The translations under genes and the position numbers were made by a program. Positions 39,372 through 56,997 of a stretch of DNA of 64,000 nucleotides are shown in pieces. Each line of letters opens with the position of its first letter. Within the stretch, counting starts at the first letter, position 1. Origin of the DNA: Marispirochaeta sp. (lineage in GTDB: Bacteria > Spirochaetota > Spirochaetia > JC444 > Marispirochaetaceae); NCBI GenBank assembly GCA_963676835.2, contig CAXXFF010000001.1, positions 32,001 through 96,000 on the forward strand, read 5' to 3'. Below the pieces are notes generated by a model, which was not told where the DNA came from, did not search any database, and saw only the letters and a program-made list of their open reading frames with translations.

Positions 39372-40124
39372 TTATTTAAAAACTCTGCCTGCATCCACAA
39401 TTAAACTCTGTCCGGTAATACTGTCGTTTTTCACGAACATAACAACCGCATCGGTTACATCATCTTTGTCTGCGGCACGCTTTAAAACACTTAAATCAAC
39501 AGAGCTTTTTCTGTGAGAGTCGGTCAGATTTCCGGTCATTCTGGTCCCTTCCATAAGTCCCGGCGCTACATCGTTTACCAGGATGTTATCCGGCGCAAGA
39601 CCGACTGCAAGACAGCGGGACAGGTGCTGAAGCCCTGCTTTGGAAACAGAGTATGCAATGCTGCTGGAATTGGGAATATTACCACCAATGGATGAAATGG
39701 TAACGATACGCCCTCCTCCCCTTTTTTTCATATAAGAAGCAGCCTGCCGTGCTGCGACATAGGGAGAAAGAAGGTTGAAATGGAGAATATACTCAAACTT
39801 TTCCGGTGTAAGTGTTTCCAGATCGGAAAATGCAATCGCCTCGTTATAGGCAGCATCAAGAACAAGAATATCAATACCGCCGAATGCATCGGCTGCCGCC
39901 TTGAGCATGGAAGCTGTGCCTTCTTCGCTGGTAACATCCGCCTGAGTGATGATAGCCTCTGCACCCATGGCTTTAATTTCCGCCAGATAGCCTTCGGCCT
40001 TCTCTTTTGAACGGCCGTAAACCATGCACAGTTTAGCTCCCTCTTCAGCAAGACGTCGGCAGATTCTCCAGCCGAGTCCGCCTGTGGCTCCTGTGACCAC
40101 TGCAACCTTATCTTTAATATCCAT
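39372..40124 (-). CDS. SDR family oxidoreductase
   Basis: VTGATGGLG, YxxxK (YSVSK), VAPG. Confidence 0.93.
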   Translation of the reverse strand: MDIKDKVAVVTGATGGLGWRICRRLAEEGAKLCMVYGRSKEKAEGYLAEIKAMGAEAIITQADVTSEEGTASMLKAAADAFGGIDILVLDAAYNEAIAFSDLETLTPEKFEYILHFNLLSPYVAARQAASYMKKRGGGRIVTISSIGGNIPNSSSIAYSVSKAGLQHLSRCLAVGLAPDNILVNDVAPGLMEGTRMTGNLTDSHRKSSVDLSVLKRAADKDDVTDAVVMFVKNDSITGQSLIVDAGRVFK

Positions 40125-40319: not shown

Positions 40320-41057
40320 TCAACTCAAGTTAAAGACCTTCTCTGCTGTTCCTGCAAAGCACATTTCCAGAGCATCGTCGGAGAGCCCGATTGCCCGGTA
40401 TTTTGCAAGTTCCACAGGAACATTCGCAAGCAGATCCGACCCGAACATCATTCTGTCCGGTCCGACTCCGCCTACCATAGCTTTAAGATCGTAAACGGTA
40501 GCCCAGCTGGTTTCCAGATATACATTGCTGCATTCCTGAGCAACGATAACTGCTTCTGATCCGAAAACACCGCCTCCGGAATGTGCCATAACAATGGTAA
40601 GATCCGGGTACTTTCGCGCCACCGGGATTATCAGTGACGGCAGCGCAACCGGCATTCCGGTGCCGGTATGTATCATAACCGGCACACCCAGCTCCAGGGC
40701 TGTTCGGTAAATCTTATCCGCCCCGGGATGGGTTGGGGCCATACAGAAGGCATAAGGCTGCAGCTTTAGTGCAACAAATCCAAGATCATTCACTGCCCAA
40801 CGCACCGATTCGATATAACTCTTCTCGTCCATATAGGGGTTGAAACAGGTCAGGCCATAGGCCCGGCCGGGATTGTCATCCACAAAACGTTTAATACGTT
40901 CATGGGCTTTTACCGGATCATTGGTAACCATTCCGGGCTGAACAATCTGGGCTGTGAGGCCGTTTTCCTCCATTGACTTCAGCAGCTCCTGTTCCGTATC
41001 GTCCGTAAGAAACATAAGATCCTCACCAAGGTGCATATGGGCATCGATAATCTTCAT
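40320..41057 (-). CDS. amidohydrolase_2 family metal-dependent hydrolase
   Basis: IIDAHMH, IHTG, MAHSG, YLETS, MFGSD. Confidence 0.9.
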   Translation of the reverse strand: MKIIDAHMHLGEDLMFLTDDTEQELLKSMEENGLTAQIVQPGMVTNDPVKAHERIKRFVDDNPGRAYGLTCFNPYMDEKSYIESVRWAVNDLGFVALKLQPYAFCMAPTHPGADKIYRTALELGVPVMIHTGTGMPVALPSLIIPVARKYPDLTIVMAHSGGGVFGSEAVIVAQECSNVYLETSWATVYDLKAMVGGVGPDRMMFGSDLLANVPVELAKYRAIGLSDDALEMCFAGTAEKVFNLS

Positions 41058-41107: not shown

Positions 41108-42085
41108 CTATTTTTCCATTGCGGGAAATACGTTTTCGATGAGGGTATCCATGGAAGCTTCAACTGTTTCCTTGGTTACCAGGAATGTGGGTACACTGAC
41201 TTTTTTGGCAGGAGTCTTCCCGTTCAGGTAATCAACTGCTGCACGCAGTGCTTCACGTCCCATGAGTACACCCTGCTGTATTGCCATGGCACCAACTTTT
41301 CCGTCTTTCATGGCACCGATGGATTCGGGGCTGCCGTCAAAACCGGCAAGAACCATTTCGTTAGTCCGCCCGACATTCTCGATTGCAACCATGGCTCCGA
41401 GAGTTCCTTCATCGTATCCGGTAAAAATACCGCGCAGATTCGGGTGTGCTACGAGCAGATCCTGAGCATACTTCATTGCTTCCGCCCGGGTATAGTTCTT
41501 GGCTTCAAGTACAGCAACAACCTTGGAACCGGCTTTTTCTACTGCATCTTTCATTCCCGCAAGACGATCTTTTCCGTTCTGTCTGGTAAGAGAGATATTG
41601 ATCATGGCCACATCGCCGCCTTTCCAGCCATTGGCTTCCATCTGCTGCGCGATGTATTCACCGGCAGCATTAGCTCCGCCGTAGTTATCGGAGATAACAA
41701 AAGAGACATACTCACCGGAATCAGTTCCGATATCGCAGACAACCACAGGGACATTGGCTTGTGCAGCAAGCTCAAGAACCGGAGGACATGATGCACTGTC
41801 AGTGGGAGAAATGATAATAGCATCAACACCCGCGGTGATCAGGTCCTGAACATTCTTAAGCTGAGTAGACGCGCTGTTACGGGAATCTGAATCGATAATC
41901 TTCACACCAAGTTTATCTGCTTCAGCATGAATACCGCCGGCCAGATCCCGCCAGAACGGAATATCCAGGCCGGGAGTCACATAAGCGATCCGGGTCTGGC
42001 CACCATCGGCCTCCTGCCCACCTTTTGCCATAAGTGACACTCCGCAGAGCATCACTATAAGAACAATAAGTCCAAGTTTTTTCAT
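41108..42085 (-). CDS. sugar ABC transporter substrate-binding protein (RbsB-like)
   Basis: Signal peptide, PFW, GVDAIIISP, SDNYGG, GFDG. Confidence 0.92.
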   Translation of the reverse strand: MKKLGLIVLIVMLCGVSLMAKGGQEADGGQTRIAYVTPGLDIPFWRDLAGGIHAEADKLGVKIIDSDSRNSASTQLKNVQDLITAGVDAIIISPTDSASCPPVLELAAQANVPVVVCDIGTDSGEYVSFVISDNYGGANAAGEYIAQQMEANGWKGGDVAMINISLTRQNGKDRLAGMKDAVEKAGSKVVAVLEAKNYTRAEAMKYAQDLLVAHPNLRGIFTGYDEGTLGAMVAIENVGRTNEMVLAGFDGSPESIGAMKDGKVGAMAIQQGVLMGREALRAAVDYLNGKTPAKKVSVPTFLVTKETVEASMDTLIENVFPAMEK

Positions 42086-42144: not shown

Positions 42145-43110
42145 CTAACGACGGCGACGAAGCATCCTGTCCAGCATTACAGATACAATAATTACCGCAC
42201 CGACGGCACTGCCCTGCCAGAACGGAGAAACCCCGATCAGGTTAAGTCCGTTATGAAGCACAGTAATAAGCAGTACTCCGATGAATGTACCAACCAGAGA
42301 CCCCTTTCCGCCGGCAAGGCTGCATCCACCGATTACAACTGCCGCTATTGTATCAAGCTCTATCCCGAGACCGGTATCCGGGTCTATGGCTCCAAGTCTT
42401 GATGTAAGAATAATGACCGCTACGGCACATAAAAATCCGGTGACAGCATACGCCATGGCCTTGTACAGCCTGACATTGACCCCGGCTAAGCGTGAAGCCT
42501 CTTCGTTACTGCCGATGGCATACCAGAAACGGCCGACTTTTGTACGGGTCAGCACAATATGACCGATAACAAAGAGCCCAATTAGAATTACCGTATAGAT
42601 GGGTATACCCATTATTTTTTCATAGCTGAAAAATCGGTAGCTTTGAGGTAGTCCGGTAACCGAATGTCCGTTTGTACTTACATAGGTAAGGGAACGGCTT
42701 ATGGACATTACGCCCAGGGTAACTATAAAAGGAGCAAGCTGGGCATACGCTATAAGCATTCCGTTTACCAGTCCAACCATTGTCCCGGTTATAAGAATTG
42801 TAACTACACCGGCTATCATTCCGTGGTTAAGCATGACGATTCCGCCGAACATTGCACTAATACCTGCAATGGCACCTACAGAAAGGTCTATTCCGAAAGT
42901 AAGAATTATAAATGTCTGACCAATGGCTATAATACCTACCATGGTTGCCTGCCAGAACAGGTTTCCGATATTTCCGATAGTCAGGAAACGGGGGGCAAGA
43001 ATACTTAAAAAGGCACATAATAGAAGAAATGCCGCAAGCATTGCCATCTCGACCCTGTATTCCCCGAGAAAAACCTTTGATTTTTGTTTTAAACTGCTAT
43101 TTATCACCAT
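42145..43110 (-). CDS. sugar ABC transporter permease (RbsC-like)
   Basis: GIDLSVG, PFIVTLG, AIGSNEEASRLAG, ELDTIAAVVIGG. ATG at 43110 follows AAGGAG. Confidence 0.93.
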   Translation of the reverse strand: MVINSSLKQKSKVFLGEYRVEMAMLAAFLLLCAFLSILAPRFLTIGNIGNLFWQATMVGIIAIGQTFIILTFGIDLSVGAIAGISAMFGGIVMLNHGMIAGVVTILITGTMVGLVNGMLIAYAQLAPFIVTLGVMSISRSLTYVSTNGHSVTGLPQSYRFFSYEKIMGIPIYTVILIGLFVIGHIVLTRTKVGRFWYAIGSNEEASRLAGVNVRLYKAMAYAVTGFLCAVAVIILTSRLGAIDPDTGLGIELDTIAAVVIGGCSLAGGKGSLVGTFIGVLLITVLHNGLNLIGVSPFWQGSAVGAVIIVSVMLDRMLRRRR

Positions 43111-44608
43111 TTGCTCCTTGTGCACAATATGTAAGTATTATCTCTTCACTTGCCTCATGATGTTGCATCTCTTTAACAATTCTCCCTTCCCGCATTACAA
43201 GAATACGATCTGAAAGTGCAAGAATTTCCGGAAGTTCAGATGATACAAGAATGATGGCGACACCGCCGGCTGCAAGTTTATCGATCAGGTTATAGATTTC
43301 AAACTTGGCTCCGATATCTATACCCCTGGTAGGCTCATCGAGAATAAGCACATCCGGTTTGTTGGCCAGCCACTTTCCGATAACGACCTTCTGCTGATTT
43401 CCGCCGCTTAAAGACTCAACAGCAGAATTGGCAGTATCGGTCTTTATTTTAAGATCTTTGACCATCTGATTAACAATGCTGTTTTCAGTACCTTTGTTTA
43501 TCCAGAAATGTTTATCCCTGGTAAAATAGGAAAGGGTTATATTGTTTCTTACCGGCAGCTTTATCAGAACACCATGGTTCTTCCGATCTTCCGGCACCAT
43601 TGCAATCCCGGCCTTTACAGCCTCAGCGGGTGATTTAAAATCAACCTCCCGGTCCATAACTGTTACTGTGCCGCTGTCCGGTTTATCTGCACCGAAGAGA
43701 AGGCGGACAAGTTCGGTGCGCCCTGCACCTACAAGGCCGGACAGACCGAGAATTTCCCCCCTGCTTACATGCAGGGAACAGTCTATAACCCGGTCTCCCC
43801 TGTTAAGGTTGGCAGCTTTAACCAGTACCTCACCTGCTTCATTCCGGTTGCGGATACTGAACATATTACCGATATCCCGTCCAACCATGGCGGTAATCAG
43901 CTCGTCTGCAGTGGTGTTGTCTTTAATAAACTCTTTAACCTTCTTTCCATCCCGCAAAACGACAATCCTGTCGCTTATCTCCATGATTTCCTCAAGACGA
44001 TGGCTGACAAAGATTATGGTTACCCCTTCCGCTTTCAGCTTTCGCAGCAGACCAAACAGCTTTGCAGTTTCCGAACTGGTCAGAGTGGCGGTCGGCTCAT
44101 CAAGAATAAGAAGTTTGGATGAAACAGAAACCGCCTTTGCGACTTCCACGAGCTGCTGTTCCGCGACAGAAAGAGATTCAACCTTGCGTGCGGGATCAAG
44201 ATGAAGATCGATATCCACCTTGTCAAAAAGCTCTTTTGTATTTTTATTAATCCGTTTTCTGTTAAGCCAGACACCACCTGAATAGGTCTCTTTGTCGGTA
44301 AGAAAAATGTTTTCGGCAATACTGAGATGCGGCACAAAACTGAATTCCTGAAGCACAATGGATATTCCTGCGTGTACCGCATCCCTGATACTCCTGAAAT
44401 GTACTTCATTGCCGTCAAAAATAACGGTTCCATTATCCCGTCCGATTATTCCGGAAATTATTTTTGCCAGGGTAGATTTACCTGCCCCGTTTTCACCGAT
44501 CAACGCAAGTACTTCGCCTTTTTTAACTTCCACACTGACAGAATCCAGCGCCTGAATCCCTCCGAAGCTTTTACTTACATCTTTTATGCTTAATAGATTC
44601 TCGTCCAA
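43097..44608 (-). CDS. sugar ABC transporter ATPase, two NBDs (RbsA-like)
   Basis: GENGAGKST, LDEPT, GLVGAGRTE, LSGGNQQK, DEPTRGID. TTG start at 44608 chosen because the longer ORF start abuts the sigma54 promoter. Confidence 0.95.
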   Translation of the reverse strand: MDENLLSIKDVSKSFGGIQALDSVSVEVKKGEVLALIGENGAGKSTLAKIISGIIGRDNGTVIFDGNEVHFRSIRDAVHAGISIVLQEFSFVPHLSIAENIFLTDKETYSGGVWLNRKRINKNTKELFDKVDIDLHLDPARKVESLSVAEQQLVEVAKAVSVSSKLLILDEPTATLTSSETAKLFGLLRKLKAEGVTIIFVSHRLEEIMEISDRIVVLRDGKKVKEFIKDNTTADELITAMVGRDIGNMFSIRNRNEAGEVLVKAANLNRGDRVIDCSLHVSRGEILGLSGLVGAGRTELVRLLFGADKPDSGTVTVMDREVDFKSPAEAVKAGIAMVPEDRKNHGVLIKLPVRNNITLSYFTRDKHFWINKGTENSIVNQMVKDLKIKTDTANSAVESLSGGNQQKVVIGKWLANKPDVLILDEPTRGIDIGAKFEIYNLIDKLAAGGVAIILVSSELPEILALSDRILVMREGRIVKEMQHHEASEEIILTYCAQGANGDK

Positions 44609-44644: not shown

Positions 44645-44661
44645 TGCAGGATCAATGCCAA
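44645..44661 (-). promoter_or_regulatory. sigma54 (-24/-12) promoter of the ABC operon
   Basis: Minus strand TTGGCATTGATCCTGCA, with GG-N10-GC spacing. Confidence 0.8.
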
Positions 44662-44747
44662 TACCAAAGTGATTAATGTAATTTGTATAATGCCAATGAA
44701 TTATAGTTTAAGCTCAGTTCCAGAGCTGCCGGTGAGTAACTGGTATT

Positions 44748-44795
44748 GGGAATACATTTACCCGGAAACGGGAACCTGCGGGTAAATTTTTACCC
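44748..44795. promoter_or_regulatory. two candidate enhancer (UAS) palindromes
   Basis: GGGAATACATTTACCC (44748-44763) and GGGTAAATTTTTACCC (44780-44795), 32 bp apart. Confidence 0.65.
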
Positions 44796-44841
44796 ACATA
44801 TTTTTCTTGACGGCCTGTGTCCAGCGTACAATACTATTGTG

Positions 44842-46155
44842 ATGATTTTTCGTATTCTGATAGTTGATGATGAGCCTGAAGTATGCAGTTCCTTATGTGA
44901 AATATTAGCCGAAAACGGCTATGACACTGATTATCTTACCAACCCCACCCTGGTTTTCGCCTATTTGCAGGAAAACCGGATAGATCTGATTCTTCTGGAT
45001 ATAAGGATGCCCGGCATTGGTGGTATAGACCTTCTGGAACAGATCCGCGGAAATCATCCGGATACAGGTATAATTGTAATTTCCGGTTTCGCCACAGTTG
45101 AACATGCGGTTAAAGCCATGAAATACGGCGCCATAAATCTTCTTACCAAACCACTTAAGATATCAACCTTACTGATTGAAATTCAGCAGTTTTTCAGCAG
45201 CAGAATTATCCGGTCAAAAGTGAGCGATGAAAACTCCATAGTAACGGCGGACCCTGCGGTAAATAGTATAGTTTCCCAGGTTAAAGTTGCCGCATCCACG
45301 CCGGCACCGGTACTTATTCAGGGTGAAAGCGGAACCGGCAAGGAACTTATTGCAGAAATGCTGCACCGGCACAGCAAGCGCGCCGCAAACCCGCTTACAA
45401 AAATCAATTGTGCAGCCATTCCTGAACACCTTCTCGAAAGTGAACTGTTCGGCTACGAAAAAGGGGCATTTACCGACGCGAAAGAGAAGAAAACCGGACT
45501 GCTTGAGTATGCAGACAAGGGAACTGTGTTTCTTGATGAAATCGGTGATATGAGCATTCACACCCAGGCAAAAATGCTGAGAGTACTTCAGGATAAGCAG
45601 TTTACCCGGGTTGGCGGAATTCACCCCATACAGAGTGACTTCAGGATCATTGCCGCTACCAATAAAAATCTCAAAGAAGAGGTTGCCAGAGGCAACTTCC
45701 GCAAAGATCTTTATTACCGACTCACGGTAGTAGAGATCAATATGCCGCCCTTGCGTGAACGATCCGGAGATATACTGCTTCTGGTAAATCACTTTATTAA
45801 ATATTTCAACAGCGTATACGAAAAAAACATACTCAACATAGGCCCCCGGGCACAGAAGGCTCTTGAGCAGCATATCTGGCCGGGAAACATACGGGAGCTT
45901 AAAAACGTCGTGGAACGGGCGGTTATTTTCAGCCCGGGGAACACTATTGATTTATCATGCCTGCCGGAACAATACCGGAGCATATTCAGCTCACCGGAAA
46001 CAGAGGAGTTCTCAAACCGTTACGATTCTGTCAGCAGAGAGATAATTATGGATGCCCTCTCCCGCTCCAATGGAGTCCGTCAGGAAGCGGCCAGACTTCT
46101 GCATATAAGCCGTAAAACGCTGTACAACCGTATGCGCAGACTTAATATACAATGA
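44842..46155 (+). CDS. NtrC-type sigma54 response regulator
   Basis: Receiver domain (ILIVDDE, LLDIRMP, KP), GESGTGKE, GAFTDA, WPGNIREL, Fis HTH. Confidence 0.95.
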   Translation: MIFRILIVDDEPEVCSSLCEILAENGYDTDYLTNPTLVFAYLQENRIDLILLDIRMPGIGGIDLLEQIRGNHPDTGIIVISGFATVEHAVKAMKYGAINLLTKPLKISTLLIEIQQFFSSRIIRSKVSDENSIVTADPAVNSIVSQVKVAASTPAPVLIQGESGTGKELIAEMLHRHSKRAANPLTKINCAAIPEHLLESELFGYEKGAFTDAKEKKTGLLEYADKGTVFLDEIGDMSIHTQAKMLRVLQDKQFTRVGGIHPIQSDFRIIAATNKNLKEEVARGNFRKDLYYRLTVVEINMPPLRERSGDILLLVNHFIKYFNSVYEKNILNIGPRAQKALEQHIWPGNIRELKNVVERAVIFSPGNTIDLSCLPEQYRSIFSSPETEEFSNRYDSVSREIIMDALSRSNGVRQEAARLLHISRKTLYNRMRRLNIQ

Positions 46156-47984
46156 ACAGGTCTGCCCCCACAGCCAATACGCCTCTGCTGAAAATGCGCA
46201 ATATTCATGTTTCCTATGGCTCTTTAAAGGCCTTGAACGGTGTGGACTTCGACCTCTACCGTGGAGAAATCCATGCACTTATGGGCGAGCACAGAGCAGG
46301 AAAATCCACCCTGGTAAAACTGCTCTCCGGCGCAGAAAAACGCGATCGGGGGGAAATATTCATAAAAGGTAAATCCTGCGGTCATCTTAGTCCGGAAAGC
46401 TCCATGAAGCATGGCATCGGCATTGTTTATCAGAATCTGATGGTCATACCGGATTTGAATACAATAGAGAATATCTTTTCTCCCAACCTGAAGATCAACA
46501 GATTCGGTCTCCTTGATCAACAGTCAATGCTCAAGACTACTGCATCCCTGCTGGAACGTCTGGACTGCCGTTTTGACTGCAGGATACCCCTTAACCGTCT
46601 GACAGTTGGTAATCAGCTTATGGTTGAGTTTGCCAGGGCACTTCGTATCAATCCTGCTATCCTGATTCTGGATGAAATTTCCAACAAGCTGACACCCCAG
46701 GAAATGAAAAGTGTCTACCGTATAATGTTTGATCTGAAACACAGCGGCACCAGCATTATCTACATCAGCCACGATATGGATGAGATTCAGCGAATTGCAG
46801 ACCGGGTCACAATTCTTAAAAACGGATACCGCAGAGAAACCGAAATGGTCCGCAACCTCAGTCAATTGCGACTGGTACAGATGACATATTCCTTTTCTGC
46901 AAAACAGGAAAGGCTTGATCAGCATGATGAAAGTTTTGCCCAGGTTAAAAAACATTTTGAAAGTGTCATACAGGACTTCCCCGCTGGAATTCTTCTAATC
47001 GATAGACAGAAAAAAGTTCAGCTTATGAATTTTGAAGCGGTGAATATAATCGGCCTTCCTCAAAAAAGATTTGAAGATTTTCCCATCTCCGATCTTTCCT
47101 TTCTGCGTGAACCGATGCTTTCGCAACTGATAGAGGCGATAGACAATCAGGAGCAGTGGTCTTCCGGTGAAACAGAAACAAGTGATGGTAAAAATCTCAG
47201 CCTGAAAACTTTTCCTATTCGCAACGATGAACAGCAGTTTATAGGAACTACCCTCCTCATTCAGGACGAATCTCTGACAAAATGTATTGATGACTACCTG
47301 ATTCAGACCGAGAAAATGGCCTCGGTTGCAGAAGTTGCGGTGGGGGTGGCCCATGAAATTAATAACCCTCTCTGCATAATCCAGAATTACATAGAGTTAA
47401 TACGGGGAAGAAACAGCGACGATGACACGTTGTTAAAAATAAGCAAGATAGAAAACGAACTGGAGCGTATAGTATCCATAATTTCCAGTCTTCTTTCGTT
47501 CAGCAGGATACAGGCACTGCCGGGAAACATGATTGATGTTGGTTCGGTATTGAATGAGGTACTGCTCCTGCTGGGCCATTCCCTGAATGACAAGCGGGTT
47601 GAGTTAGAGTGGAAACCACCCAGGACCGCCTACTATGTCGCAGGCAATGAGAATAAACTGAAACAGGTATTTATGAACCTTATTATGAACAGTCTTGAAG
47701 CAGTCCTGGATAGCGGCAGAATTGAGGTCAGGATTAAAAGTTCCAGAAGCAATGAATTCGTGGATATATTTATTCAGGACACTGGAGCCGGTATTCCCGA
47801 AGAAATTGCTGAAAACATTTTTAATCCGTTTTATACCACGAAAATAAGCAGAAAAAACAGCGGCTTAGGGCTGTCGATATGCAGGCATATAGTTGAGGAG
47901 CATAAGGGAACAATAGGCTTTAAAAGCACCCCGGGAGAATCTACGGTTTTTACTGTGAGGTTGCCTCTGGCGAGAACCTCTTAA
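46152..47984 (+). CDS. histidine kinase with N-terminal sugar-ABC ATPase domain and PAS-like domain
   Basis: GEHRAGKST, IGIVYQ, ILILDE, YISH; then PAS-like (FPAGILLID...MN); then AHEINNPL, QVFMNLIMNS, DTGAGI, FNPFYTTK, GLGL. No TM segment. Confidence 0.9.
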   Translation: MNRSAPTANTPLLKMRNIHVSYGSLKALNGVDFDLYRGEIHALMGEHRAGKSTLVKLLSGAEKRDRGEIFIKGKSCGHLSPESSMKHGIGIVYQNLMVIPDLNTIENIFSPNLKINRFGLLDQQSMLKTTASLLERLDCRFDCRIPLNRLTVGNQLMVEFARALRINPAILILDEISNKLTPQEMKSVYRIMFDLKHSGTSIIYISHDMDEIQRIADRVTILKNGYRRETEMVRNLSQLRLVQMTYSFSAKQERLDQHDESFAQVKKHFESVIQDFPAGILLIDRQKKVQLMNFEAVNIIGLPQKRFEDFPISDLSFLREPMLSQLIEAIDNQEQWSSGETETSDGKNLSLKTFPIRNDEQQFIGTTLLIQDESLTKCIDDYLIQTEKMASVAEVAVGVAHEINNPLCIIQNYIELIRGRNSDDDTLLKISKIENELERIVSIISSLLSFSRIQALPGNMIDVGSVLNEVLLLLGHSLNDKRVELEWKPPRTAYYVAGNENKLKQVFMNLIMNSLEAVLDSGRIEVRIKSSRSNEFVDIFIQDTGAGIPEEIAENIFNPFYTTKISRKNSGLGLSICRHIVEEHKGTIGFKSTPGESTVFTVRLPLARTS

Positions 47985-48020: not shown

Positions 48021-48929
48021 TTATTTGTCAGACTTCTTACTATCTATTCGTTCGACTTCCACCGGTAGTCTTTCCGGAGGATGTACCTCAAGCAGGCCGG
48101 ATCCTCTTCTATGAAAGAGGGACACTATTCCACAGTCCCATTTCAGATGCTTTCTAATATACAACTCCACATCATAACGCGTTCTATCGTGAAGTCCTCT
48201 ATGAACGGTAACGATTGTGTCGGTATGGTTTACTATCGGGCATATCCTATCCAGGGATTCAAGTGTTATATCCTGATCATAGGGGATCTCCGGAGGCAAT
48301 TCCAACGCAACAAGTATCGCACAATTATGTTCTCTTGCACTCTCCTGCAGAAGCCGAATCTTTTCTACAATATTTGTATCACGTACAGTCAAACCATCAA
48401 TAATAACAAGTTTTACATCCTGAATATCTTTCACAGGGTCTTCTGACCCGGGAGGTAAATAGTAGAACGCTTCACCAACCTCGGGCATAAACGGATTGTG
48501 AATCACATTAAAAGAATTGACGGAGATAACGGTCATGGGCGCACCAGCTATATGATTTGCTGCTTTCTCCAAGACCTCTTCATCATAATCACTGGCGGAA
48601 AACGGAATCCCTGCCAATTCCCGCACAAACAATTCTAATTGGTACTCTATATCCGAGTGGCTACTTACAAGGCTGACAGGTATACGCTTTAATACACTTA
48701 ATCGATACAGAATAGTCCTTAGAACCGTACTTTTACCCACCCTGGCTGCCCCAGCCAACAGGTGCAGCCCTGATTTAGTAAATCCACCGCCGAATGCTTT
48801 ATCGAGGGTTTTTAATCCGGTTCTTAAAAATGGAGTATATGAATCATCATCGATAGAATGCTGAATCCGCCGGACAGCTTCCTTAACAGCATCATCTATA
48901 TCGATATTCACAACACCATCTTTGCACAT
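48021..48929 (-). CDS. degenerate DnaB C-terminal (RecA-fold) ATPase-like protein
   Basis: TGLKTLDKAFGGGF, Walker A AGAARVGKST, Walker B LVIIDGL. No DnaB N-terminal domain. GGAGG RBS. Confidence 0.75.
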   Translation of the reverse strand: MCKDGVVNIDIDDAVKEAVRRIQHSIDDDSYTPFLRTGLKTLDKAFGGGFTKSGLHLLAGAARVGKSTVLRTILYRLSVLKRIPVSLVSSHSDIEYQLELFVRELAGIPFSASDYDEEVLEKAANHIAGAPMTVISVNSFNVIHNPFMPEVGEAFYYLPPGSEDPVKDIQDVKLVIIDGLTVRDTNIVEKIRLLQESAREHNCAILVALELPPEIPYDQDITLESLDRICPIVNHTDTIVTVHRGLHDRTRYDVELYIRKHLKWDCGIVSLFHRRGSGLLEVHPPERLPVEVERIDSKKSDK

Positions 48930-49113
48930 GGTTTACCTCCATTAATCTGAATTGAAAAACTACTGATCGCCTTAGGGTTAACGTTTCGGCAATAATCACC
49001 TGAATTTGCCGATAAAATGGTCTTTCGCTCTGCCGATATATCTTCGACAAATACTTTGCAGTCACTTCGCCATAAGCTGATTCTTTTCATGTTATAGATG
49101 TTATGTTCGGTCC

Positions 49114-49130
49114 ACGTCATATTATGTCGT
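49114..49130. promoter_or_regulatory. candidate WYL-regulator operator 1
   Basis: CGTCA-TATTA-TGTCG between the divergent DnaB-like and WYL genes. Confidence 0.6.
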
Positions 49131-49171
49131 TTATATTTTTTTATTGTGCTTCCAGGTAAAATATAAGTACA

Positions 49172-50167
49172 ATGGGCGATATGAGTTTCAGAGCACAAAT
49201 AACCCGCATAAATTATATTGATCAACGTTTACGCAACATGAAAGACTACCCTTCCTCCAATCAGCTTCTTCAGGGGCTTCTGGATGCAACCGGTGAAACT
49301 GTCTGCAAACGAACAATGCAGCGGGATATTACCTGGATGCGGGATGAGGGTGCTCCTATAGAATATGACAGCCGCAACAGAGGCTATTACTACTCCCACG
49401 AAAACTGGCAGATGCCGGCCATCAGCATGACAGAAGGAGACCTGCTTGCACTTCTGGTGGCAGACCGGGCCTTGTCAGGTTACCGAAACAGCCCCTATTA
49501 CGATAAATTGAAGCAGGTTTTCGAGCGACTGACACACCTCCTGCCGGAGAAGGTAACGGTTGCCTCCGAGGACCTGGCAGCGGGTGTATCGGTTGTCAGC
49601 GATCCTGTTACTAGAATCTACCCGGAAATATGGGACCTGATTCGGGAAGGAATGGACAGCCGCAAATCGGTCGGCATACAGTACCAGAGCCCCGGGTATT
49701 CCGAAGCGGTGGAAAGGACTATCGACCCCCTGCATATCGTTGGCCACCGGGGCGAGTGGTATGTACTGGGCTGGTGCCACAGGAAGGAGCAGGTACGTAT
49801 CTATGCCTTTGCCAGAATCAAGTACTGCAAGGTAACCGGAAAATCATTTCAGCCGCCGGAAGGGTTTAAAGCGGAAAACTATATTGACCCAAACATCGGT
49901 ATTTTTGTCAGCGAAGAGTCTGTGGATATGCTTATCCGCTTTAAAAATGAGGCGGCGGTAAAAATTCAGGAACGGAGATGGCATCCGGACCAGCAGATTA
50001 CAAAAAACCCCGACGGCAGCATAACCCTATCCTTCAACACAAATCAGCAGTCTCAAATTCTCTTCTGGGTATCCCAGTGGGGACCGGATGCGGAGATTCT
50101 GAAACCTGAAGGGCTGCGGCAAAGAGCGAAGGAACGGTTTGAGGCGATGGCAGCGTTGTACAGGTAG
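49172..50167 (+). CDS. wHTH-WYL-WCX transcriptional regulator
   Basis: RTMQRDI-x-x-MR wHTH, IEYD...RGYYY, RTIDPLHI...WYVLGWC...RIY..ARI, C-terminal WG..AEILKP..LR. Confidence 0.93.
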   Translation: MGDMSFRAQITRINYIDQRLRNMKDYPSSNQLLQGLLDATGETVCKRTMQRDITWMRDEGAPIEYDSRNRGYYYSHENWQMPAISMTEGDLLALLVADRALSGYRNSPYYDKLKQVFERLTHLLPEKVTVASEDLAAGVSVVSDPVTRIYPEIWDLIREGMDSRKSVGIQYQSPGYSEAVERTIDPLHIVGHRGEWYVLGWCHRKEQVRIYAFARIKYCKVTGKSFQPPEGFKAENYIDPNIGIFVSEESVDMLIRFKNEAAVKIQERRWHPDQQITKNPDGSITLSFNTNQQSQILFWVSQWGPDAEILKPEGLRQRAKERFEAMAALYR

Positions 50168-50176
50168 AATTTCAGC

Positions 50177-50270
50177 CTAGTCAACAGCCCAGCCTTCGAA
50201 TATGATAGCGTCTACTGATGTATATTCCCATTGATCATCACCATCCATATTGTTGAAAACAATCGGATCA
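50177..50270 (-). pseudogene. 3' remnant of a paralog of the 50986-51249 gene
   Basis: Reads DPIVFNNMDGDDQWEYTSVDAIIFEGWAVD* versus DPIVIHNMDGDDQWEYTSVNAIIYDGWAVD*; 38-bp identical core. Confidence 0.85.
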
Positions 50271-50318
50271 ACAATAAAATAGTAATCCCTTATAATTAAT
50301 AATTGCTTGAAAAGCAGA

Positions 50319-50358
50319 CTCCGATGTGTATATTATAACCATTATATACACATCGGAG
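50319..50358. promoter_or_regulatory. vapBC operator-like inverted repeat
   Basis: Perfect 15-bp arms CTCCGATGTGTATAT/ATATACACATCGGAG with a 10-nt spacer, overlapping the promoter region and RBS. Confidence 0.7.
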
Positions 50359-50366
50359 GCAGGCAT

Positions 50367-50561
50367 ATGCGAACAAATATCGTGATTGATGATAGTTTAA
50401 TGAATCAAGCCATTGAATTATCCGGATATAAAACAAAGAAGGAAACTGTCGAAGAAGCATTACGTATGCTGATCAAATTCAAACAGCAGAATGCTATAAG
50501 ATCATTAAGGGGAAAATTAAAATGGGAAGGTGATCTTGATGCAATGAGAAATGATAAATGA
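50367..50561 (+). CDS. vapB: VapB family antitoxin
   Basis: MRTNIVIDDSL...KTKKETVEEAL...LRGKLKWEGDL; ATGA overlap with the PIN toxin gene. Confidence 0.9.
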   Translation: MRTNIVIDDSLMNQAIELSGYKTKKETVEEALRMLIKFKQQNAIRSLRGKLKWEGDLDAMRNDK

Positions 50562-50950
50562 TTGTTGTGGATACATCAGCCTGGATAGACTATTTTAACG
50601 GAAAAACAGCTCCTCATACAGATAGATTGGATAAAGATTTAGGAATAGAAAGAGTAATTATAGGAGATTTGATAATTACAGAATTACTGCAGGGATTTAA
50701 AAACGACACAGAGTATGGAATAGCCAAGAAATTATTAGAAAGTCTGGAATATAGAGATTTCGTAGGTAAAAAAATCGCAATCCAGGCAGCAGATAATTAT
50801 AGATATTTACGAAAAACGGGAGTAACTGTTAGAAAAACAATAGATGTTATAATAGCTACTTTTTGTATAGAAAATGAATACGAACTAATCCATAACGACA
50901 AAGATTTCGACCCATTTGAAGAATATCTCGGGTTAAAGATTAGAAATTAA
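50558..50950 (+). CDS. vapC: VapC family PIN toxin
   Basis: VVDTSAWI, TELLQG, RKTIDVIIA, HNDKDF. Confidence 0.93.
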   Translation: MIVVDTSAWIDYFNGKTAPHTDRLDKDLGIERVIIGDLIITELLQGFKNDTEYGIAKKLLESLEYRDFVGKKIAIQAADNYRYLRKTGVTVRKTIDVIIATFCIENEYELIHNDKDFDPFEEYLGLKIRN

Positions 50951-50985
50951 AAATCTTAGTCTGAGAGCTTAATCTGCCCGCCTGC

Positions 50986-51249
50986 TCAGTCGACAGCCCA
51001 TCCATCGTAGATGATGGCATTAACTGATGTATATTCCCATTGATCATCACCATCCATATTATGGATAACAATAGGGTCATCGGTTTTTCGGGTCATATAG
51101 GAAGGGTCGTTTTCTATATAGCCATAGATACGTCCATCGTCCTTTCGTTTCTTAAGAATGCATTTGGGCCCGGGGAAACCGCCATCAAGCATATCTTCCA
51201 GTGTTTTCCGGCTCATTTCAGTTAATTCATCAGACCAGCTATTTTTCAT
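50986..51249 (-). CDS. small hypothetical protein
   Basis: 87-aa ORF with an AAGGAG RBS; the paralog remnant differs largely at third codon positions. Confidence 0.75.
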   Translation of the reverse strand: MKNSWSDELTEMSRKTLEDMLDGGFPGPKCILKKRKDDGRIYGYIENDPSYMTRKTDDPIVIHNMDGDDQWEYTSVNAIIYDGWAVD

Positions 51250-51305
51250 ATAAAATCTCCTTGTAATGTTTATTGCATCTGCCTACCAAAGAAGCATCCA
51301 TAGAT

Positions 51306-51611
51306 TCAAAACAGGCCCATCTGTTCATAGTGCCTTCGGTTCTTAGGTAATTCATCCATGTCCTCAGACCATCCTTCTTCATGCAGATCATCAACAATGT
51401 GCTGCAGTGCTGCAGCCCTGGACTCTTCGCCAAAGATTTTTACTGCTTCTTCAATACCGGAGAGATGATGCCGTACCTTTCGATGCCGCATTCCATATTC
51501 TTTGGAACCGGCGAATTCATCCAGCCATACATGTATTTCCGTATAGGGTTTGCCGAATTGTTCGATGCTGTGTTTTTCATGGTCAGAGAGCTTAATAATC
51601 AACCTCCACAA
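51306..51611 (-). CDS. His-rich small protein (DUF6915-like); start uncertain
   Basis: H...IH-x-WLD...RHR-x-x-RHH-x-x-GI...QH-x-x-DD pattern; family assignment from memory. Confidence 0.65.
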   Translation of the reverse strand: MWRLIIKLSDHEKHSIEQFGKPYTEIHVWLDEFAGSKEYGMRHRKVRHHLSGIEEAVKIFGEESRAAALQHIVDDLHEEGWSEDMDELPKNRRHYEQMGLF

Positions 51612-51658
51612 AGGTGTGATCCTCTAATACAAATCATTTTTAGTTTATTCACAGGTAT

Positions 51659-51675
51659 ACGACATAAATTGTCGC
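51659..51675. promoter_or_regulatory. candidate WYL-regulator operator 2
   Basis: Perfect CGACA-TAAAT-TGTCG between divergent genes. Confidence 0.65.
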
Positions 51676-51742
51676 GGTCAGGGAATTACTATCTTTTTAT
51701 GAATATTGAATCATTCGAGAAAATGATGGTAGCGTTGCATAT

Positions 51743-52207
51743 ATGAAAACAGTTTTTAAACGAAAAAGACTACCCTACCATGGAGCCGGAGTGTTGATCT
51801 GGCGTGAAGGTAATAATGGTATTCCTGAAATCCTGTTAGGCAAACGATCACAGAATGTCGGACATGGAGCCGGGAAATGGAGTACTTTCGGCGGCAAACA
51901 GGAGCGCCACGAAAGCGTTTACCGGTGCGCTATGCGGGAAGCAGCGGAAGAGACCGGCCTGCAATCTGAGGTTCTATTGGATCAGGAATTCTTTATCTTC
52001 AACCCGCGACCTTTTAAGAAAAGGACTATCCCTTTTGTCTATTCATTTACCTACTACTCCTGCGAAGCTATAAAGGCGCCGAAGGGATGGCCGCGCAAAA
52101 ACCGGGAACACACTGAAATAGGCTGGTTTTCTGTACAGCAACTGCCGGAGCCGCTTCACAGGGAAGCTCGGAGGGTAATAAAACGATGGATAAGAAACAA
52201 CAAATAA
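51743..52207 (+). CDS. NUDIX hydrolase
   Basis: Nudix box GGKQERHESVYRCAMREAAEETGL; EHTEIGWF...LPEPLH. Confidence 0.92.
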   Translation: MKTVFKRKRLPYHGAGVLIWREGNNGIPEILLGKRSQNVGHGAGKWSTFGGKQERHESVYRCAMREAAEETGLQSEVLLDQEFFIFNPRPFKKRTIPFVYSFTYYSCEAIKAPKGWPRKNREHTEIGWFSVQQLPEPLHREARRVIKRWIRNNK

Positions 52208-53139
52208 AAGGCGGCATCCTTGGACTTGCTGTCGGTGATGCCCTGGGGGTACCGGTAGAGTTCAGCAGCAGAGAAGCGCGTGACATGGCCCCGGTTACGA
52301 CCATGCAGGGATGGGGTACTCACAATCAACCGCCGGGGACCTGGTCGGATGATACATCCATGGCACTTTGCGTACTTGAGTCAATTATCGAAAATGAATG
52401 GGACTTTGAGGACCAAGGAGAGCGTTTTACTCGCTGGCTTGATAATGCTCATCTTACTGCGCACGATGAAGTGTTTGATGTCGGGATTGCAACAACCAAA
52501 GCGATAAATCGGCTCCGCACCGGAACGCCGGCGGCTCAGGCCGGAGGCGACAGCGAATATTCCAACGGGAACGGTTCCTTAATGCGGAATCTTCCCGCCG
52601 CCATCTATTGTTCCCTTTCTGTAACAGATGAAGAGCTGGTGACTATGATCGGCGAGTCCTCATCCATTACCCATGCCCATCCCCGCAGCCGACTGGGTTG
52701 TATTATCCATGCTATTATTGTATCAGAGCTGCTTCAGAGCAGGGATATTATGCAGGCTGTCGAACAGTCCCGAAAGCGCCTGGATGTTCTCATAGAGCGT
52801 AATATTCTGATGGATGATCTGAAACAGGAACTTTCGGCATATGGTCGCCTGCTAAATAGCAATATCCATATTCTTGAACGCCATGAGATTTCATCATCAG
52901 GCTACGTTGTCTCCACGCTGGAAGCGGCTGTCTGGTGCCTGGCAACCAGCAGTTCCTTTGAAGAGTGCCTGTTAAAGGCAGTCAATCTGGGAGATGACAC
53001 CGATACCGTAGGAGCCGTTGCCGGGGGGCTTGCCGGGCTCTATTGGGGAATAGAGGGTATTCCGGCAGAATGGCTTGAGGCTTTGGCAAAGGGCGAGATA
53101 ATTTTCTCAATGGTTGAGTGGTTTATCGGGTTGGTTTAG
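52186..53139 (+). CDS. ADP-ribosylglycohydrolase (ARH/DraG family)
   Basis: GLAVGDALGVPVEF, GTWSDDT, NGNGSLMR, THAH, NLGDDTDT. Confidence 0.95.
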   Translation: MDKKQQIKGGILGLAVGDALGVPVEFSSREARDMAPVTTMQGWGTHNQPPGTWSDDTSMALCVLESIIENEWDFEDQGERFTRWLDNAHLTAHDEVFDVGIATTKAINRLRTGTPAAQAGGDSEYSNGNGSLMRNLPAAIYCSLSVTDEELVTMIGESSSITHAHPRSRLGCIIHAIIVSELLQSRDIMQAVEQSRKRLDVLIERNILMDDLKQELSAYGRLLNSNIHILERHEISSSGYVVSTLEAAVWCLATSSSFEECLLKAVNLGDDTDTVGAVAGGLAGLYWGIEGIPAEWLEALAKGEIIFSMVEWFIGLV

Positions 53140-53406
53140 CAGTTTTTCAGGGTTCCCCACCCTTGCGAACAGTCTGTCTGCTAAAGTAATTGCAGGCAGC
53201 TTTCATTCTGCAGACCGGTCCGCAGTTCGGGCGGAAGATTCGTTTGTACTCTTCAACTGTGTAGACACTGAAGTTCACATCAGTAATGTCCCACGAATTA
53301 TACAGCTTCTTATAATTCCCGCCGCTATACACTTTTTTGGCTCTTCGGACTTTCCGGTTTGCCATTTGTTTATGCAGCTTCCTTCCTCTTTGTTTAGGGA
53401 ATTTGA
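52625..53406 (+). repeat. ~780-bp direct repeat, copy 1
   Basis: Matches 56086-56867 at a constant offset of 3461 bp; near-identical except the first ~90 bp. Confidence 0.92.
53147..53406 (-). pseudogene. 5'-truncated copy of the small basic gene at 56608-56943
   Basis: Same frame (...MANRKVRRAKK...) but the upstream part is replaced by the primase fragment. Confidence 0.65.
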
Positions 53407-53965
53407 TGGCTGAAAGTCTTGATTCAGGAATACAGAATGATTTTTCTCCCTGGCTCTTTTCTGCAATGGGAGAGCAATGAGATTCCCGGATCCTCCCTTG
53501 GGGAGGGTATCCTGATTGGGAAAGAAACGGTCGAATGAGTCCAGCCCTATTTCCGGTCGCTGGTCCAGGGATTTCGTTAATAAGGCGGATCCCAGACTCC
53601 GAGCCAGCCGGGCCGAAACGACTTCATCAAAGAAGATCCAGATATGTCCGCCGTTGCCGGATCTCGACCGTTCCAGATAGGCCGGGATTCCTTCTGTCTC
53701 ACAGGTTTTCATAAAAGCCGCTGTATCCTGCTCCCAATTCTCTTTGTCAAAATCCAAAGCCAGGAAATAACAGGTTTCATCCGGTAGAAGCGGATAAATC
53801 CCCATAACAAAGGGCTGAGGTTCCCCTTTTGGATAGGTGGATGGAGATTCTCCTTTCAGATGATAGGATATGATTTCGTTTGTTACGGGCAGAAACTGTC
53901 TATTGGAACAGACGGCACATTTTACTTCCGGTTTTCCACAAAGCCCCGGCTGCCATTCGTTTATA
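53407..53965 (-). pseudogene. fragment of an archaeo-eukaryotic primase domain (TOTE conflict-system type)
   Basis: NEW..GLC.KP.VKC..C, GIYPLL, LALDFD, ERSRSGNGGH, DRFFPNQD, GNLIALPLQ. Both termini appear to be missing. Confidence 0.75.
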
Positions 53966-54004
53966 CGGGGCGTTTTGGCCGGCTTCTTTTCTTCAACATC
54001 ACTT

Positions 54005-54535
54005 CTATTCTTCTTCTGCGTCCTCATAATGTTCATATACAAGACTCGCGATTTCATCATGAAACCCCCAGCCTATGCCTTCGGTTTCATCTATAAAACC
54101 GAAACACTGATCCTTGTATTTCTTCAGCAGGTCATTTTCACTTATATGCACAAGAAACCGTTCCAATGATTTTACAATATTTTCGTAAAACCGTTCATCA
54201 ATGTCTCCGTATTCATTGGTAAAATCTATTCCGCATCTGACATGTGTAAAAAGAAGTTCTGCCATGTAACCGGAATCTTTTGATATTTTATTGAATTTTG
54301 TAATGGCCTCTCGGATATTAGCATACCGAAGCTTACCTAATCCCTTTTCAGGGAAGAATTCATCGATAATCTGCTTTTTGTATTTCTGAAAGATAATATC
54401 AGGATTTGTATAACCGTAGCTCTCATCAAGAATTTCTTTGGCAAGTGGGACTTTTCTGTATAAATCTATGATTATTGCCATCAATTCGTTTTTTTGCATG
54501 GAGTTTATTTCTTTCTTTAATTCTCTTATTCCCAT
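54005..54535 (-). CDS. hypothetical helical protein (DUF6155-like)
   Basis: FTNEYGDIDERFY...GIGWGF pattern; family assignment from memory. Confidence 0.65.
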   Translation of the reverse strand: MGIRELKKEINSMQKNELMAIIIDLYRKVPLAKEILDESYGYTNPDIIFQKYKKQIIDEFFPEKGLGKLRYANIREAITKFNKISKDSGYMAELLFTHVRCGIDFTNEYGDIDERFYENIVKSLERFLVHISENDLLKKYKDQCFGFIDETEGIGWGFHDEIASLVYEHYEDAEEE

Positions 54536-54536
54536 T

Positions 54537-55592
54537 TTATTCCTTTTCAGCCTTCTTTTTTTCTATCATCTTTTTGATTTCCTTATCGAAATCAGATTCG
54601 ATCTTCTGGATTTTATTAAATTCATCATACTCGGAATAGGCTTTTTTCTCAGCAATTCTGTGAGAAACAGATCCTTTCCCTTCAAGAATCCTGTACTCAT
54701 TAAAATCAAGGAATTTGTTCACTGATTCTGTTAAAGATTCCATGGTAAAAGTAGTTCTGTTTTCGATAAGCCGTTCAATATAATCAAAATAACCGGTTAT
54801 AGCCCGTTCCAGCTTTTTAATCTCATCTTCTTTAAGGTAATTCTTTGCAACAACTGTGTCAGATTTGAGGATACGCCCGTCAGGAGCATTCTTCCATGTT
54901 GTCATTCCCATAAAAGGCTTGTCTTTATCGGCTTTAGAATGCACAATTTCTGCAGATGTCTGGCCAGTAATTGCGAAATGAAATTTATTCTGGATCATTG
55001 CATAGAATGATTTAGTAATATCCGATTTCGGGTCATAGTCAATGGTACATTCAGCAAAAATATCAGTAATCTGCTGATATATTCGCCTTTCACTGCTGCG
55101 AATTGAGCGGACTCTTTCAAGTAACTCTTGGAAATAATCCTGACCAAAGAAACGGCCGTTCTTTAGCCGTTCATCATCCATAACAAAACCTTTGATAATA
55201 TATTCCTTTAGGGTGTTAGTCGCCCAAATACGGAATTGTGTGGCTTGTCGAGAATTTACTCTATAACCCACAGAAAGCACAGCATCAAGATTAAAGTATT
55301 TGACTAGTTTTTTTTGAGTTTTACCCTCTATTGCACCATGCTGAGTGGTATTTTCCAAAATGGAAACAACCACTTTTTCATCAAGTTCCCCACTTTCAAA
55401 AATGTTCTTCAGGTGTTTAGATATAGCGGCTATACCAACTCCGAACAGTTCGGCCATTCGCTTTTGAGTCAACCAGATCGTCTCATTATTGAGAAAGACT
55501 TCTACCTTTACATTTCCGTCGTCAGCGGTATATAACAGGAATTCAGTAAGTTCGTCTCTTGTAGAGAGTGGCTTTTTTCGTTCTTTACCCAT
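54537..55592 (-). CDS. RhuM family protein
   Basis: TIWLTQK.MAELF, SVGYRVNS, TQFRIWAT, KGFVMDDERLK, IRSSERR.YQ, QNKFHFA, AKNYL. Confidence 0.92.
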   Translation of the reverse strand: MGKERKKPLSTRDELTEFLLYTADDGNVKVEVFLNNETIWLTQKRMAELFGVGIAAISKHLKNIFESGELDEKVVVSILENTTQHGAIEGKTQKKLVKYFNLDAVLSVGYRVNSRQATQFRIWATNTLKEYIIKGFVMDDERLKNGRFFGQDYFQELLERVRSIRSSERRIYQQITDIFAECTIDYDPKSDITKSFYAMIQNKFHFAITGQTSAEIVHSKADKDKPFMGMTTWKNAPDGRILKSDTVVAKNYLKEDEIKKLERAITGYFDYIERLIENRTTFTMESLTESVNKFLDFNEYRILEGKGSVSHRIAEKKAYSEYDEFNKIQKIESDFDKEIKKMIEKKKAEKE

Positions 55593-55861
55593 CAGATACA
55601 ACCTCCTGAACAGGATCCTATGGTGATGTTATTATGTTGAACTGTTTCCATTTTAGAAATAGTTGCTTCCCGGTTGAGTTGCCCCTCTTCGAATATGTTT
55701 TTCAAGTGCTTTGATATTGCGGAAACATTAACCCCGAAAAGTTCAGCCATTGCATTCTGGTGGTGCCAGATAGTTTCATTTTGTAAGATAGTATCGACTT
55801 TGTTGTCGCCTTCCGGGGTGGTGTACAGGAGTATTTGGGATTGGGTGGAATGTTCCTTCAT
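55592..55861 (-). pseudogene. N-terminal fragment of a second RhuM-like gene
   Basis: ILLYTT...ETIW..Q.AMAELFGV..SAISKHLKNIFEEG.L; similarity ends after ~75 aa. Confidence 0.8.
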
Positions 55862-56943: not shown

Positions 56944-56997
56944 GCAGGACCTCCTTTGTGGGTTTGTTTGCTATGATTGGATGGTAGCATTTTTAGG

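Follow-up and report, generated by a model that had tools for sequence, protein, structure and literature searches.

Several bacterial kinases are already known to be coupled to a transporter, by way of membrane helices in the Bce systems, of the adaptor PhoU, or of a carrier that is part of the kinase in CbrA. Here we describe a histidine kinase that begins with an ATP-binding cassette (ABC) nucleotide-binding domain (NBD) of the type found in CUT2 sugar importers, encoded in a stretch of 64,000 nucleotides from Marispirochaeta sp. (the window; assembly GCA_963676835.2, contig CAXXFF010000001.1, positions 32,001 to 96,000). The kinase gene adjoins the gene of a sigma-54 activator and is divergent from a CUT2 transporter operon. 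From comparison of the sequences we infer that these genes form a transporter-coupled two-component system made from transporter parts.

In BceAB–BceS/BceR of the Firmicutes, the ABC transporter is a co-sensor for the kinase that controls the transporter's own genes (PMC10314905; PMC6978683). Transporter co-sensing and control of transporter genes are what it would have in common with the window system. BceS differs in that it is a membrane kinase, distinct from the transporter, whose transmembrane (TM) helices contact the permease; it has no ABC domain and serves peptide resistance, whereas the window kinase is soluble, contains the NBD within itself, has a sigma-54 activator as its partner and is associated with sugar import. 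No TM helix was found in the kinase, and the permease encoded nearby belongs to BPD_transp_2. In PstSCAB–PhoU–PhoR/PhoB an ABC importer relays the substrate state to a kinase without a periplasmic sensor, as proposed here, but the adaptor PhoU and a working ATPase, PstB, are needed (PMC6978683); no PhoU-like gene was noticed at the loci encoding the fused kinase, where the NBD is part of the kinase. A transporter part covalently joined to a histidine kinase is found in the Pseudomonas transceptors CbrA/CbrB and CrbS (PMC13022988; PMC7096432; PMC5715377). There the fused part is a membrane SLC5 carrier with STAC, whereas in the window kinase it is a soluble ABC motor domain and the permease is encoded by a separate gene; Pfam and NCBIfam detected no SLC5 or STAC domain in the TM-free kinase. 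CbrA/CbrB also resembles the window system in its PAS domain and in having a sigma-54 partner. The cited parts of PMC11109136, which treats bacterial transceptors, name no NBD–kinase fusion.

KdpD, another sensor kinase encoded next to the pump it controls, also starts with an ATP-binding Walker A/B domain, but that domain has an atypical serine kinase fold, the protein also contains TM helices, and its pump belongs to the P-type ATPases (PMC11018627). On the transporter side, the first NBDs of RbsA, MglA, AraG and XylG (PMC11466899) are like the kinase NBD in sequence, fold, Walker A Lys and degenerate signature, and form its sister clade. The kinase NBD differs in having no second NBD with an intact signature and in being fused to a PAS-kinase, and the P-loop Asn, D-loop Pro-Thr and MVG linker of CUT2 ATPases have given way to residues specific to the kinase family. 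The C-terminal 370 residues and the partner regulator recall the AtoS/NtrB-type PAS–HisKA–HATPase kinases with AtoC/NtrC activators, which have a membrane sensor input in place of the ABC domain. For each of four classes, namely Bce-type kinases, CbrA-type transceptors, AtoS and CUT2 ATPases, a tested defining feature is lacking, and the kinase therefore belongs to none of them.

The kinase is a single unbroken frame with the following parts.

46152–47984, + strand: soluble histidine kinase of 610 residues, arranged as CUT2-derived ABC NBD, helical linker, PAS, HisKA and HATPase_c (Pfam, NCBIfam, hydropathy, model)
46182–46889, + strand: ABC nucleotide-binding domain, residues 11–246, from the first NBD of RbsA/MglA-type ATPases (NCBIfam, tree, model)
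46284–46310, + strand: Walker A GEHRAGKST, residues 45–53, with Lys and Ser retained and His in place of the Asn of transporter first NBDs
46599–46619, + strand: degenerate signature LTVGNQL, residues 150–156
46659–46694, + strand: Walker B and rewired D-loop ILILDEISNKLT, residues 170–181
46920–47267, + strand: linker helix and PAS domain, residues 257–372 (Pfam, hydropathy analysis, model)
47352–47354, + strand: phospho-acceptor His401 in AHEINNP (His in 134/134 representatives)

An initial annotation, made from the letters alone, had read this frame as a complete RbsA/MglA-type first NBD joined to a PAS-like domain and HisKA/HATPase, with no TM helix, and Pfam, NCBIfam, hydropathy and the structural model bear it out. 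Pfam places ABC_tran at residues 28–176 (E value 1e-21), HisKA at 398–455 and HATPase_c at 498–607, the two kinase domains scoring above cut-off; PAS (268–367) scores weakly, at 21.3 bits, slightly under the cut-off of 22.6. The top NCBIfam matches for residues 8–266 are the CUT2 sugar ATPases AlsA, YtfR, AraG and RbsA, all under cut-off, and the resemblance to AtoS (PRK11360) is limited to residues 240–608, with 232.7 bits against a cut-off of 646. His401, Asn509, Asn513, Asp543, Gly545, Gly547, Gly571 and Gly573, which represent the H, N, G1, F and G2 boxes of class I histidine kinases, are each present in all 134 family representatives. Peak hydropathy over 19 residues is 1.35, compared with 2.44 in the permease, and exceeds 1.8 in just 6/134 relatives; no TM or periplasmic sensor is apparent.

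In an AlphaFold2 model built on 140 sequences (pLDDT 89, pTM 0.51), the full NBD (residues 11–246) is followed by a low-confidence loop (250–256), a helix (257–273) and a PAS fold, and one long helix (374–419) bears His401. The NBD superposes on LptB with a Z-score of 27.5 and an r.m.s.d. of 2.6 Å over 233 residues. Foldseek and VIA searches matched ABC and kinase domains separately, and no solved protein with the architecture of the kinase is among the matches listed. As expected for mechanical coupling, both linkers are nearly fixed in length: 31 residues separate Tyr246 from Pro277 in 111/134 representatives, and 29 separate Asp372 from His401 in 120/134. The C-terminal helix of the NBD has gained conserved residues (Tyr246 in 120/134, Asp237 in 114/134), and conservation of the PAS domain is confined to roughly a dozen fold positions.

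The fusion of ABC domain and kinase is real. A full-length relative, 83% identical (locus L112), has the same gene order around it in a genome assembled as one contig, and the junction (46736–46938) is crossed, with 14 letter differences and no gaps, by a contig that a second study obtained from a related strain. An assembly chimera is ruled out by these two observations, and no trace was found of the frameshift or chimera near 46890 that the initial annotation had named as a possible refutation. One public contig covers the whole stretch without gaps, though it may itself be the source of the window. The genome carries a single copy of the fusion, which is only 33% identical to the neighbouring ATPase and closer to some other paralogues.

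Full-length homologues, a search for which had been proposed at the outset, are readily found. A first search returned at least 119 relatives beside the query, all at least 46% identical to it over 97–100% of its length, with GEHRAGKS invariant in 120/120 close relatives listed (a partly redundant set). A profile search of representatives at 50% identity gave at least 150 proteins; 134 of them are 570–660 residues long, and all 134 contain the NBD. In a midpoint-rooted FastTree phylogeny of 163 NBDs (duplicates L125 and L130 excluded), the kinase NBDs (37/37) form one clade (support 0.996), sister to the first NBDs of two-domain CUT2 ATPases (0.911), which points to a single old fusion, not repeated local duplication. 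Two subgroups can be told apart, one with GEHRAGKS and DE-x-SNKL, to which the window kinase belongs, and one with GEHGAGKS and DE-x-LEKL. The kinase part appears broken at 2/38 loci (L002, L141).

All named fusion loci come from spirochaetes and candidate division KSB3, two KSB3/Moduliflexus genomes having three copies each. Spread is patchy: members were found in 14/401 sampled genomes of the window's phylum (three candidates scored per genome) and in 13/41 relatives, and no full-length member in 301 sampled genomes from the phylum of a Chloroflexia genome (four candidates scored per genome). Among 2,419 matching plasmid records, none reaches 80% coverage of the kinase. A metagenome scan with the ABC domain gave 80 loci with no fusion, all ordinary transporter ATPases, which served as a comparison set; a scan of a genome collection, dominated by the generic kinase pattern, gave 7 fusions in 80 loci, the other 73 becoming the control loci. 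Members carry automatic database labels such as 'AtoS' and 'signal transduction histidine kinase/ABC-type ATPase', and the architecture is on record in databases yet apparently unstudied. No description of it was found in the open-access literature, while subscription papers and supplements with domain-architecture tables might list it; the main text of PMC4558063 contains no occurrence of 'ABC'. The ESM Atlas holds, as leads only, longer ABC–GAF–kinase clusters (826–852 residues, scores 0.84–0.85), commonest in Actinomycetota, and a 515-residue ABC_tran plus HisKA cluster; these are possibly independent fusions.

To describe what the ABC domain has kept and lost, the 134 kinase representatives were compared with 105 first NBDs (NBD1s) of transporter ATPases. 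Best kept are the ATP-binding residues: the Walker A Lys is present in 132/134 kinases, the Walker B Asp in 129 and the Glu in 119, all three being present in 105/105 NBD1s, and Walker A Lys, Ser/Thr and Walker B Asp occur jointly in 127/134. Elsewhere the domain departs from its source. The P-loop Asn, present in all 105 NBD1s, is found in 4/134 kinases (His in 95), and the D-loop Pro and Thr, at 98% and 93% in NBD1s (103 and 98 of 105), are at about 3% in the kinases, where a new Lys or Arg follows in 102/134. In the window kinase these changes appear as GEHRAGKST and DEISNKL (residues 174–180) against GENGAGKST and DEPTATL in the neighbouring ATPase, exactly as the initial annotation had reported. 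Its statement that the Q-loop and H-loop are kept holds for the window kinase (Q94, H207) and not for the family, in which the Gln is present in 107/134 and the His in 83/134, compared with 105/105 NBD1s for each. All six catalytic residues tested are present in 70/134, including the type of the window kinase. Retention of the transporter consensus falls to 0.29 in the signature helix and 0.24 in the D-loop helix, against a domain average of 0.55.

The degenerate signature of the kinase NBD resembles that of RbsA-type first NBDs. Of the two sites of RbsA, one is degenerate and the other intact (PMC11466899). The intact signature, LSGGNQQK, is located on NBD2 of the RbsA-type ATPase, which the kinase does not possess, so a kinase homodimer would be without a complete hydrolytic site; the kinases have a single NBD, and SGG occurs in the signature of 0/134. 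With the CUT2 ATPases the kinase shares the NBD fold, the Walker A Lys and the Walker B Asp-Glu, but it has no second NBD or intact LSGGQ, and the GENGAGKST P-loop, the DEPT D-loop and an invariant H-loop His are not features of its family. As the family keeps the ATP-binding residues while losing the P-loop Asn, the D-loop motif and, in many members, the H-loop His, the domain probably binds ATP with little or no turnover and without a normal hydrolysis cycle.

Next to the kinase are the activator and the genes for transport and catabolism, arranged as follows.

44842–46155, + strand: NtrC/AtoC-type sigma-54 activator with REC, AAA+ (GAFTDA) and Fis helix-turn-helix (HTH) domains (Pfam, NCBIfam)
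44779–44796, no strand: 18-bp palindrome CGGGTAAATTTTTACCCA, candidate enhancer for the activator, 136 bp upstream of the sigma-54 promoter
44747–44764, no strand: weaker repeat of the palindrome at a distance of 32 bp (read from the sequence)
44645–44660, − strand: sigma-54 −24/−12 promoter TGGCAT-N5-CTGCA, directed towards the transporter operon
43097–44608, − strand: RbsA-type two-NBD sugar ABC ATPase (Pfam, NCBIfam)
42145–43110, − strand: RbsC-type CUT2 permease (BPD_transp_2), proposed docking partner (Pfam, NCBIfam)
41108–42085, − strand: RbsB-like sugar-binding protein, under every named cut-off (NCBIfam)
40320–41057, − strand: Amidohydro_2 hydrolase, probable catabolic operon gene (Pfam)
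39372–40124, − strand: short-chain dehydrogenase, probable catabolic operon gene (Pfam)

Activator and kinase genes overlap at ATGA (46152–46155), the translational coupling noted initially, and the divergence from a sigma-54-driven sugar ABC operon, also noted then, is confirmed by the −24/−12 site and by rpoN, which is present in the genome. The locus has every component of an NtrC-type sigma-54 circuit: a REC–AAA+–HTH activator, a GAFTGA-like loop, a −24/−12 promoter and rpoN. The transporter ATPase probably starts at TTG 44608, since the upstream TTG 44644 abuts the −12 element. No other perfect copy of the palindrome CGGGTAAATTTTTACCCA exists in the genome, and we infer that it is a candidate activator-binding enhancer.

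The same arrangement recurs across the family, as the initial annotation had anticipated for CUT2 transporters and sigma-54 regulators. We compared 38 fusion loci (37 distinct) with the 73 control loci of related kinases without an NBD, the mean locus span being 16.5 kb for fusions and 13.3 kb for controls; the neighbour profiles were built from the fusion loci themselves, five further loci being held out as a test, and as the fusion loci share kinship the counts are not independent trials. A CUT2 permease is encoded at 36/38 fusion loci (35/37 distinct; 40/42 distinct with the held-out loci) and at 1/73 controls, a CUT2 ATPase at 36/38 and a sigma-54 activator at 37/38. Permease, ATPase, binding protein and activator are present in 5/5 held-out loci. 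Directly upstream of the kinase is the activator in 37/38, the remaining kinase lying at a contig end. Both loci without a permease are at or near breaks: the contig of L001 ends inside the ATPase gene, and the operon orthologous to that of L138 (69–75% identical) opens another contig of the L139 genome. A tandem repeat of about 41 bp that follows the L139 sigma-54 site (L139:6750–6825) also opens that operon contig (L222:1–105), which indicates an assembly break or a rearrangement.

At 31 of the 37 loci with the activator directly upstream, a CUT2 gene is divergent within 2.2 kb. A −24/−12 site scoring at least 9 of 11 is directed towards the transporter at 29 of these and towards the regulator at none (0/31); among the held-out loci, 4/5 have a sigma-54 site towards the transporter. 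The 14-position enhancer consensus, derived from the very sequences that were scored with it, is perfect at 6/30 loci and matched at 12 or more positions at 8/30, and no held-out locus (0/5) exceeds 11; the putative enhancer is a feature of a subgroup, not of the whole family. At L003 (1–13451) two kinase–activator modules lie back to back, with CUT2 genes downstream of each and XylF-like and RhaS-like binding proteins. Single-NBD transporter ATPases, with an intact or near-intact LSGGQ, are encoded at L115 (4923–5750), L128 (5303–6100) and L140 (2223–3011 and 5508–6353).

Which part of the transporter the kinase follows was assessed by co-variation at 25 loci with one unambiguous divergent operon (the other 13 of 38 being excluded). 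Kinase NBD, catalytic domain and activator run closely together (rho 0.76–0.81), and the three transporter genes co-vary among themselves (rho 0.40–0.59). Between the two modules the values are low (kinase module with ATPase rho 0.02–0.06, with binding protein 0.12), leaving them largely uncoupled. The neighbouring pumps are AraH-, XylF/GguB-, YtfQ/YtfT- or RbsB-like (arabinose-, xylose-, galactofuranose- or ribose-like) and always CUT2, so the kinase module has been swapped among sugars yet has stayed with CUT2, the source class of its NBD. The sole cross-link is between kinase NBD and permease (partial r 0.25–0.27, permutation p 0.02–0.04), and it persists in 21 less redundant loci; the partial tests of NBD with ATPase, NBD with binding protein, catalytic domain with permease and activator with permease gave no correlation (21–25 loci).

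Overlap of the kinase and activator genes and their matching similarity patterns (rho 0.78) suggest that the two are a cognate pair, in which the kinase would autophosphorylate and pass the phosphate to the adjacent activator. With high confidence, phosphorylation of the activator by the kinase is predicted to induce the importer–hydrolase–dehydrogenase operon. That the kinase NBD docks on the permease we consider fairly probable, and the cross-link between the two lends it weak support. As a more tentative proposal, to which we give somewhat less than even weight, the docked kinase dimer would replace the motor and read the sugar-loaded binding protein, not flux. Such replacement would follow because the two fused NBDs of RbsA should fill both seats of the permease dimer, and flux reading is less likely because the docked dimer would displace the motor and the kinase NBD is without the parts for hydrolysis-driven transport. 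In this mechanism, the two ABC domains of a kinase dimer would take over the position of RbsA on the permease dimer, resting on its cytoplasmic coupling helices, and a fraction of permeases would thereby become non-transporting receptors. As happens in an importer, docking of the sugar-loaded binding protein outside would alter how far apart the coupling helices lie. The ABC domains, with ATP bound and hydrolysing it poorly, would move, and their C-terminal helix and fixed-length linker would relay the movement via PAS to the HisKA helix. The activator would then be phosphorylated and the operon induced, with sugar specificity set by binding protein and permease, not by the kinase.

In favour of this mechanism are the near-constant CUT2 neighbours, the orientation of the sigma-54 promoter, the exchange of the kinase module among pumps that are all CUT2, the NBD–permease correlation, the retained ATP-binding residues alongside the lost transporter motifs, the fixed linkers and the lack of a TM or periplasmic sensor. 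Several observations count against docking on the permease. Every locus with enough flank encodes its own ATPase, and none forces the kinase to be the sole NBD; the synteny can partly reflect co-inheritance. The NBD–permease signal is weak, comes from 21–25 related loci and was one of six partial tests. By analogy with other importers, the Q-loop segment is expected to face the permease, but the signal peaks in residues 10–44 (r 0.35), not in that segment (residues 79–112, 0.24), and transporter-consensus retention in residues 81–111 is 0.62, near the domain average. The permeases of L121 and L122 are 61% identical to that of the window and are paired with kinases only about 30% identical, so any kinase–permease interface must be tolerant. 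In the model, residues 250–256, just after the NBD, form the low-confidence loop.

Among other explanations, one that we think unlikely is that sensing is cytoplasmic: PAS would bind a catabolite or the sugar itself once imported, with the ABC domain as no more than an ATP/ADP gauge or a membrane tether and the transporter only admitting the inducer. A PAS fold is indeed present, the ABC domain is most conserved at its ATP-binding residues, and KdpD offers a precedent for a regulatory N-terminal Walker A/B domain in a sensor kinase (PMC11018627). A soluble ligand sensor could, however, serve any sugar operon, yet a CUT2 permease is found at 40/42 distinct loci despite changes of partner and substrate; the ABC domain alone tracks the permease, and so sparsely conserved a PAS domain also speaks against this explanation. 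Quite improbable, in our view, is true flux sensing as in PstB–PhoU–PhoR, in which the kinase would bind the working transporter through its ATPase, for example by pairing with NBD2 of RbsA, and read turnover. Its domain descends from NBD1, the natural partner of NBD2, all six catalytic residues survive in about half of the family (70/134), and PstB–PhoU–PhoR acts through an ATPase subunit (PMC6978683). But the surfaces on which two NBDs close are those lost, the D-loop and signature helices, no correlation with the neighbouring ATPase is seen, and at three loci (L115, L128, L140) the ATPases are of the single-NBD, not the fused, form.

That the ABC domain instead acts on the transporter, as a competitive brake displacing the motor or as a KdpD-like modifier, with the kinase receiving its input from elsewhere, is highly improbable. 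Docked on a permease, a hydrolysis-poor NBD would be expected to block transport, and the N-terminal Walker domain of KdpD phosphorylates and inhibits its own pump (PMC11018627). The NBD nevertheless folds as ABC NBDs ordinarily do and not as an atypical serine kinase, and the fixed linkers and newly conserved residues of the C-terminal helix point to coupling towards the kinase. Scarcely credible is a functionless, decaying accident, arising either as an assembly chimera or when the neighbouring ATPase gene was duplicated locally and joined to a kinase. Many members have eroded catalytic residues and two loci seem broken in the kinase part; against this stand the one ancient, well-supported clade, the low identity to the neighbouring ATPase, the invariant GEHRAGKS of close relatives and the continuity of independent contigs.

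If docking on the permease is correct, an ABC NBD as kinase input would be a new coupling device, and how importer conformational states are converted into a signal could be tested directly on a single soluble protein whose output is read from a reporter. One soluble kinase family would gain any CUT2 sugar specificity by relocating next to another transporter operon, a way to obtain a receptor that has no sensor domain of its own, in which binding protein and permease together make the transmembrane receptor. The kinase would also be a probe for CUT2 permeases, for which no sequence relative was found in the copy of the PDB searched. Sugar regulation in many free-living spirochaetes and KSB3/Moduliflexus bacteria would be accounted for, and the kinase could yield a modular sugar biosensor.

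Within the window's genus, L121 and L122 combine a transporter 51–62% identical to that of the window with a kinase of the other subgroup, and a lactonase-like gene replaces the amidohydrolase, an exchange of modules inside one genus. Elsewhere in the same genome (L223:2317–11141), genes for a sigma-54 activator and a conventional membrane kinase (694-residue frame, two hydrophobic stretches), along with a probable binding-protein gene, come before a second CUT2 operon, an ordinary parallel solution to the same task. Just past the kinase, window positions 48021–61000 have mobile or defence-like gene content, with GC dipping to 35–37%. The region contains a DnaB-like fragment and a WYL-domain regulator (49172–50167) and, by eye, a small antitoxin and PIN-like toxin pair (50307–50950) and NUDIX-like and ADP-ribosylglycohydrolase-like genes; it looks like an insertion site because the 83% identical locus L112 has different genes there. 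On the other side of the locus, at 33244–37500 (− strand), is a gene for a 1,418-residue protein with, by eye, many SPNGDG-type repeats and an OmpA-like C terminus.

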